Both the position numbers and the translations under genes were made by a program. Positions 27,296 through 34,128 of a stretch of DNA of 53,620 nucleotides are shown here, piece after piece. Under the pieces are notes generated by a model that ran no database searches, had not been told where the DNA came from, and worked only from the letters and a program-made list of their open reading frames with translations. The DNA comes from Patescibacteria group bacterium (GTDB lineage Bacteria > Patescibacteriota > Patescibacteriia > UBA9934): assembly GCA_041666145.1 (NCBI GenBank), contig JBAYHK010000006.1, positions 1 through 53,620 of the forward strand, read 5' to 3'. How positions within the stretch are numbered: position 1 is the first letter of the stretch; each line of letters begins with the position of its first letter.

Positions 27296-27370
27296 TCCGA
27301 GGTAGCTCAGCGGCAGAGCAGAAGACTGTTAATCTTTTGGTCGTGGGTTCGATCCCCACCCTCGGAGCCA
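27296..27370 (+). tRNA. tRNA-Asn(GTT), anchor of the cassette array
   Basis: Acceptor TCCGAGG/CCTCGGA + GCCA; anticodon loop CTGTTAA; T-arm GTGGG-TTCGATC-CCCAC. Confidence 0.96.
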
Positions 27371-27555
27371 TGAAAAATCACCAACACCCGTTGGTGATTT
27401 TTCATTTCTCTGAGTGGGATCAGAACCCACGACCAATATGTTGGGTTCGATGACACAAGCGAGCGAGCGGAACTGTTGGGAAGGCTTATGTTCACAACAG
27501 TTCCCGAGCGAGCGCAGTGTCATATGGCTCTGCCATATCCCCACCCTCGGAGCCA
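27364..27555 (+). repeat. Gene-less ~190-bp unit, copy 1 (ends in a 19-bp duplicate of the tRNA-Asn 3' end)
   Basis: Near-identical to 28543-28733; ATCCCCACCCTCGGAGCCA at 27537-27555. Confidence 0.9.
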
Positions 27556-27683
27556 GCATAACCCTCAGCATTTTGCCCACCGTCGCCTAGCGGCTATGGT
27601 GGACGGGCTGGGGTTTTTGCTATCTTTTGGAGGTACCCAAAGTTGGGTTAGAACTGATATAGTCGGTTTACTATAAATTGCAT

Positions 27684-28460
27684 ATGCAGGATCGCAACAC
27701 AGACTATAACCTGGATAAAGACAAAAACGTTCTTGGACAAAAGTGGTACTCCACATATGGTGGTTATTTTTCAAATCTCAAAAACATCGACGTTTTCGTT
27801 GATGCGCTCATCCCTCTACTGCCCAACCGATCACTCGAAGTGTTATATGTAGCATCAGCTAGTGGTCTTCTGGGTGAGCGACTAATAAAAAAGCTTGGAC
27901 AAGGACACTTAATGCTAGTCGACGTTTCAAAGGAACACCTTGATGCTAATACGAATCCAAACACATTGAAGATTTGTAAGGATCTTTTAGATTTGAATTT
28001 AGGAAAGCGATACGATCTCATTATCATGCGAAGTTCACTGGATTATTTTCCAACAATGGAACAACAGATACGCGTTTTAAAAATACTTGGAAATCATCTT
28101 CGTGGAGATGGATTATTTGCGAATCAACCGGCATACATCGGAAATCTCTCAGAGAGAAAAGTGATAAGCAGGATGTATCAAGACTGTCCGAAGATCGGTA
28201 ATCGACTTTTTCAATCGATTGACATGGCAGATGTCTATCACGAGGCCGGCTTCACAGCTCCGGAATGTATCGGGGCAAGCGAGGATCTCGTGACGTCCGA
28301 TCGCGACTATCAGGATCGCTACGGGATATCAGCTGAAGACATTGGCCGTATTCGTCAGATGATAACACCAGACATGAATTACGCCCTGCGAACCATCAAT
28401 GGCTTTGAGCTACGCTTCGAGTTCCCGATATTCGTCTCGTCTCGGCTTGATGGTCGCTGA
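27684..28460 (+). CDS. Class I SAM-dependent methyltransferase (cassette cargo)
   Basis: VLYVASASG motif-I variant, LVDVS, YDLIIMRSSLDY. Confidence 0.75.
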   Translation: MQDRNTDYNLDKDKNVLGQKWYSTYGGYFSNLKNIDVFVDALIPLLPNRSLEVLYVASASGLLGERLIKKLGQGHLMLVDVSKEHLDANTNPNTLKICKDLLDLNLGKRYDLIIMRSSLDYFPTMEQQIRVLKILGNHLRGDGLFANQPAYIGNLSERKVISRMYQDCPKIGNRLFQSIDMADVYHEAGFTAPECIGASEDLVTSDRDYQDRYGISAEDIGRIRQMITPDMNYALRTINGFELRFEFPIFVSSRLDGR

Positions 28461-28542
28461 ACTATTCAAAATACAGAAAGCTTAAAATCATACTCGTGTG
28501 TTTCTTGCTCGCGTATGGTAGTTCCACCGCGTTCCACAATGT

Positions 28543-28733
28543 GGAGCCATGAAAAATCACTAACTTCCGTTAGTGATTTTTCATTTCTCTGGGTGGGATC
28601 AGAACCCATGACCAATGTGTTGGGTTCGATGACACAAGCGAGCGAGCGGAACTGTTGCGACATTTATGTTCACAACAGTTCCCGAGCGAGCGCAGTGTCA
28701 TATGGCTCTGCCATATCCCCACCCTCGGAGCCA
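28543..28733 (+). repeat. Gene-less ~190-bp unit, copy 2
   Basis: Differs from copy 1 mainly in hairpin loops and a compensatory stem pair; tRNA 3' duplicate at 28715-28733. Confidence 0.9.
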
Positions 28734-28863
28734 TGTGGAAGCGACCGATGCAAATTGGTCGCTTTTGCATTTTGTATATTTATAAGCCCGTTATTGACAA
28801 TAAAGCTTTTTTTGATAAACTTCTCTCTCATCTTCACCGCTTAACCCAGGAGGATCAAACAAG

Positions 28864-29100
28864 ATGAGTGCCAATAACTACCCACCGATTCCTAACGGAA
28901 CCATGGTCAAGACCACTGTTCCGAACAGTGACATGGCCGGAGGATGGAACGAACTTGCACTAGCTGAGCGTCTTGGCAGGTGGGGCAAGAAAGGTACCGT
29001 CGTTGAACACAGCGATTCGCACGGTCTCTGTTATAAGGTCATGTTCGATGACAATGCCGTCGCCTGGTTCGATCCTCAAGAATTCGAGTTGAGCACATAG
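28864..29100 (+). CDS. 78-aa small beta-barrel-like (SH3/KOW-like) orphan (cassette cargo)
   Basis: TTGACA-16-TAAACT, SD AGGAGG; pattern G.MVK...GTVVE...YKVMFD...WF. Confidence 0.65.
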   Translation: MSANNYPPIPNGTMVKTTVPNSDMAGGWNELALAERLGRWGKKGTVVEHSDSHGLCYKVMFDDNAVAWFDPQEFELST

Positions 29101-29325
29101 GTTGCCTTCGAGTTGTCTCATCCGCCCGCCAGAGCCGCTATATGAGCCGCTCACTCTGGTTGGCGGTTTCGTTTTTAATCAATAAACCAAATCCGACTCT
29201 GTAAGCTTCGGGATGCTAATGCATCCCTCATATTTCTCAACCGCAGTTCGAACGGAGTCGACAATGTGGCGCCACATAAATCATCAGGATTTTCCTGGTG
29301 ATTTTTGTTATGATCTTTGTTAATT

Positions 29326-31723: not shown

Positions 31724-31743
31724 TTGCGTGTACTGGCCAGAAC

Positions 31744-31777
31744 ACAATAGCTCACCAAAAAATTGGTGAGCTATTGT
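31744..31777. terminator. Terminator after the sulfotransferase gene
   Basis: ACAATAGCTCACCAA-AAAA-TTGGTGAGCTATTGT. Confidence 0.8.
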
Positions 31778-32013
31778 TTATGAGCTTATTTCAGTAAATA
31801 TGAAGAAGTTTAGGCTGTGCTTTGGGATGCTAATGTATCCCTCATATTCCTCAATTGTAGTTCGAGTGGAGTCGACGATGTGGAGCCGGCATAACCCTCA
31901 GCATTTTGCCCACCGTCGCCTAGCGGCTATAGTGACAGGCTCGGGTTTTTGATTTTACAAAACTCATTTTTTATGCCATATTATCAGGTCCACAACACCC
32001 CCAGGAGGACTCA

Positions 32014-32430
32014 ATGCTTCACCCCCAGCTCATCGCTTTGCTCACTCAAACTGGCATCGGATTCGACTCTTTGGACATCGAGCTCGAGGAACGCGGTCCG
32101 AACCTGTTCGTCGTGGTCCAGAACGCCAACGCCGTACGTCGCCTCGTAGTTCAGGGCGTTGATCGTCCGCGCAAGGTGCGACGCAACCACTACAAACCGA
32201 TCACCGCCACCTACGCGGACGCCGATGGCTTCATGACCATCTACGAGATCTTCCTATTCACCGAGCTTTGGATCAAGAAGGAGGTTGCGGAGGAGATGAT
32301 CCGTAGCGGCGAATTGATCATGGCTCAGGCCAAGGAGATCCCCCAGCAGGATCTCTACTGGCGGGACGACCCGTGGTTTCAGCAGAACCGCGCGTTCGTG
32401 CTCCAAGGCCGCGAGCCCTACATGCCATAG
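32014..32430 (+). CDS. Orphan hypothetical protein (cassette cargo)
   Basis: SD AGGAGG 32003-32008; C-rich third codon positions; followed by a shared hairpin family. Confidence 0.7.
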   Translation: MLHPQLIALLTQTGIGFDSLDIELEERGPNLFVVVQNANAVRRLVVQGVDRPRKVRRNHYKPITATYADADGFMTIYEIFLFTELWIKKEVAEEMIRSGELIMAQAKEIPQQDLYWRDDPWFQQNRAFVLQGREPYMP

Positions 32431-32621
32431 GCCCCTTTTGTTCGTCGAGGATCGATGAACAACAACTCTACCGTCCATCACGAGCGCCGCACGGGCCGCT
32501 CATCTCTGGTGGACGGTTTCGTGTTTTCACTAACTTGTTCCACAACGTAGAGCCAACAGGGTTCGAATTGGAAACAGTTCGAGTTTTGTTTTACTCTGGA
32601 GAATAAGTTGGTTCTGAAGAT

Positions 32622-33326
32622 ATGAGAAAACTGCTTTATATATTGATCGAATTATTGCTTTTAATCTTAGTATTTTTCGGTGTATACAAAATCAGTAAAT
32701 CAAGATGGTTTCAATTTTTTGGAGATATAACGAGTAGTGTCAATACCGAGGAACGGGTAGTCGCTCTCACATTTGATGACGGTCCAACCGAATATACAAA
32801 TACGGTTCTTGATATTCTCGAGGGAAAAAATGTCTCAGCAACTTTTTATGTTACGGGATTGGATTTAGAAAAGCATTCAGATATTGGCACAGCTATTGTT
32901 GAGGCAGGCCACGACCTTGGTAACCATTCATATTCTCATTCAAGATTTTTGTTGAAATCTCAACATTTCATCGACAATGAAATCCAAACGACAAGTGAAC
33001 TGATTCGTCAAGCTGGATTTGATGGTGAGATTACATTCAGACCACCGTACGGAAAAAAGCTTTTCGGTCTTCCTTGGTATCTTATGATGCATGGAATTAA
33101 GACAGTGACTTGGGATGTTGAGCCTGACTCCTTCGGTTCCGAATCAGATTCCATTGTTCAGTATACGATTGAGCACGTAAAAAATGGATCGATTATTCTG
33201 CTGCATTCATCCTGTGAGTCATGTAACGGACAGCGAGAAGCGATTCAGAAAATCATTGATGCTTTAAACGAACAAGGTTATGGGTTTGTTAAGGTTTCTG
33301 AATTATTGCGGCTAAATCAGAACTAA
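32622..33326 (+). CDS. NodB-type polysaccharide deacetylase with N-terminal anchor (cassette cargo)
   Basis: TFDDGP, HSYSH, FRPPYG, ILLH motifs. Confidence 0.92.
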   Translation: MRKLLYILIELLLLILVFFGVYKISKSRWFQFFGDITSSVNTEERVVALTFDDGPTEYTNTVLDILEGKNVSATFYVTGLDLEKHSDIGTAIVEAGHDLGNHSYSHSRFLLKSQHFIDNEIQTTSELIRQAGFDGEITFRPPYGKKLFGLPWYLMMHGIKTVTWDVEPDSFGSESDSIVQYTIEHVKNGSIILLHSSCESCNGQREAIQKIIDALNEQGYGFVKVSELLRLNQN

Positions 33327-33676
33327 AACTATCCCAATCCATCGTTCTGAATGCGTCCACGAGGCAGAGCCGGCATCACCTTCGGCATTTTCCCCATTCT
33401 CGCCTAGCGGTTACGGTGGTCAGGCTGGGGTTTTTGCTATGTTTTGGAGGTACTCAGGGTGGGTTAGAACTTTTTTTGAAGATATTGAGCAGTTGTGATG
33501 TTTTTATAAAATCAGGGGGTTAAAATGGACAAAAGAGGATTTTTTTGCTATTATTATTAGTTATTTTGAGAAGGAATTCTACGTCAATGTGGCACGAAAC
33601 GTGCTTTATTGACGCAGTGTCGTGATTTGATGCAATTCCTGCACATATCGCGGCATACCACGAAGGAGACATTCTC

Positions 33677-33958
33677 ATGACTGTTTTTCAGATTAGTCCC
33701 GATGATCGTCCAGTTGCTCAACATAAACTCATCAAGAAGGCCGCTTTGATGATGTTCGAAACGCCTTCGACCTTTCTTGCCATGATGGTTATCCCGGGAT
33801 CTGTCGTGGTCATGGTCTTCGGAACTCGTGGAGCGTAGTGGTCTCAGGCGGTTCCTTTGGTGGCCGCTGTGTTCCTGCTAGGACTGCTCTTCCGGAGTCG
33901 GTACCGGGAGTGCAAAATAGTGAATCAAATGTTGCGTAGCATTCGGTCACCGGAGTAG
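33677..33958 (+). pseudogene. Two-TM membrane protein (93 codons) interrupted by an in-frame TAG at 33836-33838 (cassette cargo; absent from the ORF track)
   Basis: Promoter TTGACG-16-TGCAAT, SD AAGGAG; reading frame continues WSQAVPLVAAVFLLGLLF... to TAG 33956-33958, then a terminator. Confidence 0.65.
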
Positions 33959-34128
33959 CCACAATCTCACCGCCCACCACGAGCGTCATACGAGCCGCTC
34001 ATTCTGGTGGGCGGTTTCGTTTTTAATCAATAAGCGCGTTCGACGGTGTGGAGCCAGCATAGCCCTTAGTATTTTGCTGCGTTTTCAGGCTACCCGAAGC
34101 GGGGTTAGAACTGATAGACTAGATTTAT

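Follow-up and report, generated by a model that had tools for sequence, protein, structure and literature searches.

To our knowledge, only integrons are well established as a system for stacking single-gene cassettes at one fixed site, and they rely on a single clade of tyrosine recombinases. The composite islands of the staphylococcal cassette chromosome (SCC), SCCmec and pseudo-SCC, lie at rlmH of staphylococci and are moved by the Ccr large serine recombinases (LSR). An enterococcal analogue of these islands has been described (PMC6222049). The tycheposons of Prochlorococcus are tRNA-linked islands that arise by serial integration (10.1101/2020.12.28.424599). In 2014, serine recombinases were stated as not being known to target tRNA genes (PMC4383910). 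Here, we analysed a contig of 53,620 nucleotides (JBAYHK010000006.1, hereafter the window). It belongs to a groundwater member of Patescibacteria that is close to Uhrbacteria and Magasanikbacteria. At the 3' end of its tRNA-Asn gene, positions 27371–34056 hold nine units divided by repeats of a 7-nt core, and none of the nine encodes a recombinase. We favour, with some reserve, the view that this region grew by accretion at the CCA end of tRNA-Asn, as an array of non-autonomous cassettes stacked by an LSR acting in trans. Full-text literature searches returned no description of cassette arrays of this kind, with LSR tails, at tRNA-Asn.

The array resembles integrons and the clusters of attC sites lacking integron integrases (CALIN) in its co-oriented, mostly single-gene units that end in a conserved recombination arm, in the stacking at one fixed site, apparently with the newest unit beside it, and in the frequent absence of the enzyme. 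In contrast to integrons, a tRNA end, not an attI next to intI, serves as the fixed site, many cassettes come with a terminator and promoter of their own, and the arm is a piece of recombinase coding sequence. An initial annotation of the window, made from the sequence alone, had called the array integron-like. This holds for its probable manner of working and its co-oriented single-gene units, but IntI, an attC palindrome and a GTTRRRY boundary are all absent. attC sites are imperfect inverted repeats (R''-L''...L'-R') of 55–140 bp with GTTRRRY where cassettes meet, whereas the boundary is here GGAGCCA and the arm is a directional coding remnant with a conserved frame.

The SCC islands share with the array a large serine recombinase, the insertion at the extreme 3' end of a conserved gene, the tandem arrangement of elements with and without recombinase, and junctions that repeat the final bases of a target that stays intact. 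They differ in that the target is here a tRNA CCA end and not a protein gene, without Ccr-family enzyme or rlmH, and in that the repeated arm restores the C-terminus of the recombinase instead of that of the target gene. The units are also much smaller (~1 kb with a single gene, versus 3–60 kb, with at least 13 junctions on one contig), and among characterised enzymes this family has only distant relatives. Tycheposons show the same recurrent integration at one tRNA, with older elements pushed inward and degenerate remnants left behind, carry adaptive or defensive cargo, and in a minority of cases use large serine recombinases. Yet their junctions are partial copies of the tRNA, mostly made by tyrosine integrases, and their units are autonomous and span multiple kb, whereas the junctions here have no more than 7–10 nt in common with the tRNA, their arm is the tail of a recombinase, and a mobility gene is missing from nearly every unit. 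The A118/LI integrase sites (PMC3783163) are similar in their short crossover identity, in half-site motifs offset by 5 bp, and in the Resolvase, Recombinase and zinc-ribbon domains of the enzyme. They differ in that the putative attP lies here inside the enzyme's own reading frame, that the target is a tRNA terminus, and that the site on the cassettes is an attR-like hybrid, which canonical enzymes would not accept.

The array at the 3' end of tRNA-Asn

The genes upstream of tRNA-Asn are housekeeping genes (RNase J, DnaG, RpoD, BipA). From the last bases of the tRNA onward, we recovered all ten 7-nt cores of the initial annotation, each at its position and with its sequence, and the nine unit lengths between them (185, 994, 184, 541, 1161, 1453, 667, 817 and 684 bp). 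The heptamer GGAGCCA occurs 11 times in the whole window, a mild enrichment over the 3.8 copies expected, and its five + strand copies within 27364–34056 are all cores. The bare 7-mer is weak evidence, and it is the surrounding context that carries the case. Seven of the ten cores terminate an ungapped arm, GTTCKAAC-N4-TYNACNAYG-NN-GAGCCR, or the inner 15–20 nt of it, and the alignment around the cores bears out the conserved arm proposed earlier at these seven. Three of the arms (family D2) extend to ~100 nt. The three best arms of the window are 56–74% identical over 100 nt to arms in independent, unrelated assemblies, against a mean of 25% and a maximum of 40% for random pairs.

The tRNA-Asn itself gives an arm of the B type, GGTTCGATC-CCCAC-CCTC-GGAGCCA. 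In the window, left arms of this tRNA type (B) or of a tail type (P) are joined to several unrelated right (R) arms exactly at the 7-nt core. The joining of unrelated arms at an identical base argues for site-specific exchange. The cores can be taken, as had been proposed, as recombination junctions that have the 3' end of tRNA-Asn in common. A unit consists of a core, a terminator resembling the flank of the tRNA (in some cases with a promoter), a single gene, an LSR-tail arm and the next core, as follows.

27296–27370, + strand: tRNA-Asn(GTT) gene (ARAGORN; Rfam tRNA, 69.5 bits); its final 7 nt, 27364–27370, are the first core, GGAGCCA
27371–27555, + strand: unit A, copy 1; terminator hairpin 27372–27403, then a strongly structured stretch and, at 27537–27555, 19 nt copied from the tRNA 3' end and ending in the core
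27556–28549, + strand: cassette 1; R arm made of module B (27556–27670, terminator and extended −10), S-adenosylmethionine (SAM) methyltransferase gene 27684–28460, partly decayed LSR-tail arm and core ~28513–28549 (antisense WLHIVERGG...)
28550–28733, + strand: unit A, copy 2; follows a P-arm core and ends in a 19-nt tRNA copy (28715–28733) with the core
28734–29274, + strand: cassette 2; terminator 28733–28770, promoter-like site 28794–28821, gene for a 78-aa protein 28864–29100, hairpin 29122–29175, full LSR-tail arm 29167–29274, core GGCGCCA
29275–30435, + strand: cassette 3; terminator 29278–29304, RhuM-Fic gene 29329–30321, full LSR-tail arm 30330–30435, core GGAACCA
30436–31888, + strand: cassette 4; hairpin, arylsulfotransferase-like gene 30494–31723, LSR-tail arm 31785–31888, core GGAGCCG
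31889–32555, + strand: cassette 5; module B copy 31889–31960, 138-aa orphan gene 32014–32430, hairpin ~32470–32525, internally deleted arm 32534–32555, core AGAGCCA
32556–33372, + strand: cassette 6; hairpin, polysaccharide deacetylase gene 32622–33326, decayed arm ~33350–33372, core AGAGCCG
33373–34056, + strand: cassette 7; module B copy 33373–33470, small membrane-protein open reading frame (ORF) 33677–33958, hairpin 33970–34017, internally deleted arm 34035–34056, core GGAGCCA
34057–34128, + strand: module B copy leading into a methyltransferase gene (34129–34821)

The seven gene cassettes measure 0.5–1.5 kb and hold one + strand gene each. For six of these genes, Pfam bore out the content given in the initial annotation (SAM methyltransferase, 78-aa protein, RhuM-Fic, arylsulfotransferase, 138-aa orphan and polysaccharide deacetylase), whereas the seventh is an interrupted ORF of 53 aa (33677–33838) for a two-helix membrane protein. 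Because its frame runs on past the TAG (33836–33838) to 33958, it is probably a pseudogene, the alternative being a read-through gene. Over its full length, the RhuM-Fic protein matches PDC-S23, a candidate defence family of PADLOC (E = 4e-106). Genes with a Fic domain occur in cassettes of the loci L071, L075 and L180 too. The two remaining units are gene-less, as reported, and turned out to be two copies of one 185-bp structured element, unit A.

Hairpins follow the cores, as had been described, and look like terminators. The distal junctions are more decayed than those close to the tRNA, which is consistent with growth at the tRNA end. Modules are repeated along the window: module B four times (27556, 31889, 33373 and a presumed original at 34057), D2 three times and unit A twice. 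In the window and in the related locus L177, module B ends in an extended −10 promoter (TGnTAnAAT) ahead of the cargo gene. The copy at 34057–34128 is probably the original downstream flank of tRNA-Asn (B' arm), and would mark the distal end of the array. Beyond 34056 we found no convincing arms, with one doubtful remnant near 36830–36850, and a permissive Rfam scan of 26.5–37 kb returned only the tRNA.

The arm is the antisense tail of a recombinase gene

Read on the opposite strand, arm and core encode the final 9–33 codons of an LSR gene (W-L-x-I/V-V-x-x-V-R-T...stop). The GAGCCA of the core is the antisense of TGG-CTC, the Trp and Leu codons, and the reverse complement of GGTTCTAAC.TCGTCCACGAYGCGGAGCCA reads W-L-R-I-V-D-x-V-R-T. 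The antisense peptides are WRHIVDSVRTAVEKYEGCISIPKLTESDLVY followed by a stop for the arm at 29274, WFHIVNSVRIAVEEYEGSISIPKFTEADLV... for the one at 30435 and RLHIVDSTRTTIEEYEGYISIPK... for the one at 31888, and those of the window also include WFHIVNSVRIAVEEYEGSISIPK... The arms at 28549, 32555, 33372 and 34056 are decayed or internally deleted versions of the tail, the internally deleted ones retaining the inner 15–20 nt beside the core. Antisense translation of ~150 arms from other loci gave the same peptide family, with a stop after 26–32 codons.

To avoid circularity, we built a hidden Markov model (HMM) of the LSR tail solely from the C-termini of real LSR proteins. In a six-frame search of the whole window its top three hits were the three intact arms (E = 0.0016 for cassette 4, 0.0042 for cassette 2, and 0.011), and the next hit had E > 1. 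In L151, L164 and L133, an LSR ORF on the opposite strand reads straight through such a junction. An exhaustive profile search of 1.84 billion proteins revealed an LSR coiled-coil body contiguous with a YIYIPDL-type tail (P0151), which is the most common type among the cassette arms. The arm is thus conserved, as expected of the recombination arm of the initial annotation, but it is the antisense 3' end of an LSR gene rather than an abstract site. Its identity points to a serine enzyme rather than a tyrosine one, and the arms do match something associated with recombinases, namely LSR C-termini. It is very likely that the junctions originated as serine-recombinase sites whose arm is the enzyme's own tail.

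We also considered the arms as tRNA-like 3' halves, given the presence of GGTTCGAA and the CCA end, and rejected this because they lack T-stem complementarity and have unsuitable lengths. The similarity between arm and tRNA is more readily accounted for if attP mimics the tRNA arm, expanded by 5 nt. A long conserved hairpin, CCGCCCACCA...TGGTGGGCGG followed by TTTCGTTTTT, occurs at 29122–29185, 32470–32530 and 33970–34033 of the window. It sits just beyond the stop codon of the antisense tail, and probably stems from a bidirectional terminator of the recombinase gene itself that travelled with the arm.

The recombinases and their attachment sites

The LSR of related loci (L149, L015) have Resolvase, Recombinase and Zn_ribbon_recom domains, as do their homologues in databases. 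The latter end in two ways, either with the tail (P0001, ...CWLAIVDSVRTFFAELDGEFPIP) or with tRNA antisense sequence that begins at the same Trp (P0007, ...WQGRRESNPQF; P0008, ...WRVRRDLNPRSSP). Accordingly placed overlaps are found in L181, where the LSR ORF covers 42 nt of tRNA-Asp in antisense, and in L182, where it overlaps tRNA-His. The occurrence of intact tails and tRNA-antisense fusions at the same Trp indicates that attP lies within the 3' coding end of the LSR gene and pairs with the CCA terminus of the tRNA. The crossover is predicted to coincide with or adjoin the Trp codon (TGG, which is CCA in antisense). Phage and plasmid collections contained only distant matches to this LSR family (24–32% identity).

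The identity between attP- and attB-type sites is short (7–10 nt), and the length of the core identity tracks the end of the host tRNA, being CGGGGAGCCA in one lineage and CGGAGCCA in another. In three lineages, the distance of GTTCKAWC from the core end is 21 nt in the arm versus 16 nt in the tRNA. Set against the B-type arm given above, the tail-type arm (GGTTCKAAC-N4-TCCAC-N5-GGAGCCA) resembles the 3' region of the tRNA with 5 additional nt. In serine-integrase sites, the motif bound by the zinc-ribbon domain is 5 bp nearer to the centre in attB than in attP (PMC3783163). The 5-bp offset between arm and tRNA would match this attP/attB architecture.

Gene calls often split the LSR genes of this family into one ORF with the Resolvase and another with the zinc ribbon, or give C-terminal pieces of ~290 aa (L180 4060–5694, P0002–P0013), which could be due to frameshifts, decay or recoding. 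Between the terminator of tRNA-Asn and the 3' end of an LSR gene, we observed 5–7 direct repeats of CCACCACGTTTT (L015 478–700, L035, L016, L039). The LSR gene beside these repeats lacks the usual tail. The repeats could be protein-binding sites.

Occurrence in other genomes and metagenomes

We scanned species-representative genomes for the final 19 nt of tRNA-Asn and obtained 44 loci. Several of them (L013, L030, L031, L032, L047) have arms of the same kind downstream of tRNA-Asn and on the same strand. With a search pattern derived from nine arms, we detected the junction in more than 120 metagenome contigs. The arms were co-oriented in 188 of 191 hits, with a median spacing, or unit size, of ~1.2 kb. 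The 18 loci with a detectable tRNA-Asn had 20 arms downstream of it and none upstream. At nearly all junctions a terminator hairpin begins at the core. The R arms share homology with the sequence that natively flanks tRNA-Asn, and in L096 the flank of the tRNA matches the right arms of cassettes. The arm pattern had no hits in viral contigs (IMG/VR), where the tRNA 19-mer gave one irrelevant hit.

On one contig of 27 kb (L075 and L079) we counted at least 13 junctions; the single genes between them are diverse, and none is a recombinase. Its cargo includes an acyl-CoA dehydrogenase, an amidohydrolase and a TetR regulator, which suggests a host outside Patescibacteria. A cassette at 10479–11873 of L075 (oriented coordinates) encodes a group II intron reverse transcriptase.

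In line with the initial annotation, we found small, modular units that vary from one syntenic relative to another. L177 has the same gene order as the window (RNase J, DnaG, RpoD, BipA, FAD protein, ABC, Big_13, tRNA-Asn; 75% identity for the FAD protein) and an array with four junctions of the same structure, but a wholly different cargo (Mur ligase, nucleotidyltransferase, HAD, HIT and M23 peptidase). Reordering of cassettes with a break at the core, the other expectation for relatives, was found between L063 and L075, which are 100% identical through cassette, arm, core and 12 nt, and unrelated beyond, so that the cassette has new neighbours and the break lies within 12 nt of the core. L047 carries a homologue of the RhuM-Fic cassette behind a different upstream neighbour.

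In the sequencing runs X1 and X2, other community members have a unit of ~25 nt, CACCATATGGTGCATGGC, directly after tRNA-Asn and ending in GGAGCCA. The same runs contain a minor variant (depth 4 versus 48) in which the tRNA core is directly followed by the right arm of the RhuM-Fic type. Many relatives (L012, L013, L016, L019, L022, L030, L034, L037, L039, L045, L047) have an insert of ~190 nt in the anticodon loop of tRNA-Asn, because of which ARAGORN misses these genes. From its conserved motifs, the insert looks like a group I intron. The tRNA-Asn of the window has no such insert.

A model for accretion and its alternatives

In the mechanism that we propose, each unit would be a non-autonomous cassette whose circular form would carry P arm, core and R arm, the R arm being a copy of the terminator downstream of the tRNA, sometimes with a promoter. 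An LSR provided in trans would recombine this site with the tRNA, core and R arm of the chromosome. The enzyme could come from phage- or plasmid-like elements, such as L180, which is phage-like and has ParB, a methyltransferase, DUF5681 and an LSR in the attP state, or the ~7.6-kb element of L181. The product would be again tRNA, core and R arm, followed by an arm, core and R arm, with the newest cassette next to the tRNA. Since both partners share the same kind of right arm, the target would be regenerated and the cassettes would stack. We regard the mobility of single cassettes in trans as plausible, with the balance even.

The description of the array as integrase-free stands within the window, where Pfam scans of ~40 ORFs and tblastn and phmmer searches with LSR and tyrosine-integrase queries found no recombinase, but not for related loci, some of which carry an LSR. 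As the window lacks the enzyme, it would have to be supplied in trans for any activity. In this genome the array is probably quiescent, because there is no enzyme nearby, the distal arms are decayed, one cargo gene is a probable pseudogene and two assemblies are identical.

Several observations weigh against the LSR-driven accretion of cassettes. The window has no LSR of its own, and an intact LSR with the 'ISIPK' tail type of the window was not found by word-indexed and exhaustive searches of 1.84 billion representatives, which returned this tail type only as orphan arms called as small ORFs. The reshuffling between L063 and L075 is the single clean event among 95 junction pairs. Two independent assemblies carry an identical array, and thus give no sign of current activity. 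Logan contigs of three runs holding the array, which break at every repeat, contained no circular or deletion junction, and the joints found there came from minor relatives and not from excision. The predicted reaction, P-core-R with B-core-R, is non-canonical, because an attR-like site and attB are not partners for canonical serine integrases. Lastly, the LSR remnants directly after a core in L133 are consistent with the decay of full elements.

This last point leads to the possibility that the junctions are passive scars of LSR elements of 7–30 kb, which integrated serially at tRNA-Asn and decayed to one gene and an attR, the cassettes never having been mobile. We consider this unlikely, though several facts speak for it: full elements exist at tRNAs (~7.6 kb in L181, and the phage-like L180), a truncated LSR lies immediately after a core in L133, the window has eroded or internally deleted distal arms and lacks an LSR, and tRNA islands of pushed-in, degenerating elements are documented for tycheposons. 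Yet, such scars should have a recombinase body to the right of every core but the last, where nearly all junctions have a tRNA-flank-like terminator starting at the core, and only ~5 of 190 arms adjoin LSR remnants. The uniformly small units (median 1.2 kb) do not fit either, and the repeated integration at one tRNA would be unexplained because a canonical LSR destroys attB on integration. Homologous recombination could also have shuffled the genes, the junctions of 100–200 bp serving as portable homology for natural transformation and RecA, with no need for a site-specific enzyme after the first junction. The long and repeated modules (B, D2 and unit A) would suit such a process, the unit A copies flanking cassette 1 are 93–100% identical as in a Campbell-type event, L013 has more than 100 nt identical after two cores, and the break between L063 and L075 falls in a conserved stretch of 12 nt, so that its exact position is not resolvable. 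It is nevertheless quite improbable, since many adjacent junctions of the window share only the 7–8-nt core, with unrelated arms meeting at the same base, and since the inner 15–20 nt of the arm persist when the remainder is deleted. The strict co-orientation and the linkage to tRNA-Asn over distant lineages also favour a directional, site-specific system.

A true integron or CALIN, or modules of other tyrosine recombinases (IntI, a tRNA-targeting integrase or XerC/D pdif), would equally give co-oriented single-gene units without local integrase. A truncated tyrosine integrase lies beside unit A in L031, a full one lies near tRNA-Asn in L024, and the 19-nt tRNA duplication that ends unit A is a classic signature of these enzymes, so that a tyrosine-integrase reading may apply to unit A alone. 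For the array it is very improbable: the units lack both an imperfect palindrome of the attC type and a GTTRRRY/RYYYAAC boundary, their arm derives from the coding sequence of a serine recombinase, and the window has no IntI or Xer gene. The Phage_integrase domain was absent from the ~40 ORFs of the window, and phmmer with tyrosine integrases found none in the window or in 120 metagenome loci. pdif modules are flanked by 28-bp XerC-spacer-XerD sites, and inspection of the junctions, by eye only, showed no 11-6-11 dif-like dyad. A resemblance to Xer/dif sites (GCATAA after some cores) is confined to 4–5 junctions, all with module B, and was discarded. We also rejected palindrome-associated transposable elements (PATE) of the IS200/IS605 type with subterminal hairpins, because the hairpins that follow the cores differ from one another and resemble terminators.

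Unit A and other features of the window

The two copies of unit A start with a terminator and end in the 19-nt copy of the tRNA 3' end. In tRNA islands made by tyrosine integrases, a displaced tRNA 3' fragment (usually 15–50 nt) marks the distal end of each element (the Islander signature). Such a fragment is found in unit A only, whereas the seven gene cassettes share just the 7-nt core with the tRNA. The predicted fold of unit A has −86.6 kcal/mol (z = −8.0). Homologues occur at the same place in L013, L033 and L031, with variants in L047, L032 and L029. The consensus fold is multibranched, with a 7-bp helix that closes an upstream strand with the tRNA-derived strand and leaves CCA unpaired. 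This layout may be tRNA-like, although covariation support is weak with 5 sequences. In L031 its neighbour is the truncated tyrosine integrase noted above. Unit A could be the relic of a tyrosine-integrase element, or a second landing site that spares the tRNA, or a small RNA.

Outside the array, an 853-aa VirD4/TrwB-like coupling ATPase (DUF87, TraG-D_C) is encoded among the housekeeping genes (8755–11316) and is conserved in L172 and L173. On the distal side, three tandem SAM methyltransferases and a HAD hydrolase (34129–36786) lie upstream of a 1632-aa Calx-beta repeat protein (36939–41837) with internal direct repeats of 1002 bp and ~330 bp. Homology between the methyltransferases at 27684 and 34129 was rejected (BLASTP E = 0.12).

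Implications

Serine integrases are widely used tools of genome engineering and are limited by their one-shot directionality. If the enzyme behind these arrays regenerates its target after each insertion, it would be of practical interest. The family appears to target the CCA end of tRNAs with an attP located in its own reading frame, contrary to the statement of 2014 (PMC4383910). It is possible, though we hold it with less assurance than the accretion of this array, that the arrays represent a widespread gene-capture system run by LSR and integron-like in function, which uses the CCA end of tRNA-Asn as its attI and regenerates this target, allowing unlimited stacking and excision of single genes, candidate phage-defence genes among them, in ultra-small Patescibacteria and other uncultivated lineages. 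In such a system every cassette would have as its recombination arm a copy of the C-terminal coding tail of the recombinase, and a cassette abutting the enzyme gene would therefore complete its reading frame. If so, a serine-recombinase system would have reached the integron architecture independently, as a second way of capturing genes. Such a system would also account for a hypervariable accessory locus in the very small genomes of Patescibacteria and in other uncultivated groups. In the array of the window, the cargo includes a candidate defence gene of the Fic type, cell-envelope enzymes and methyltransferases.

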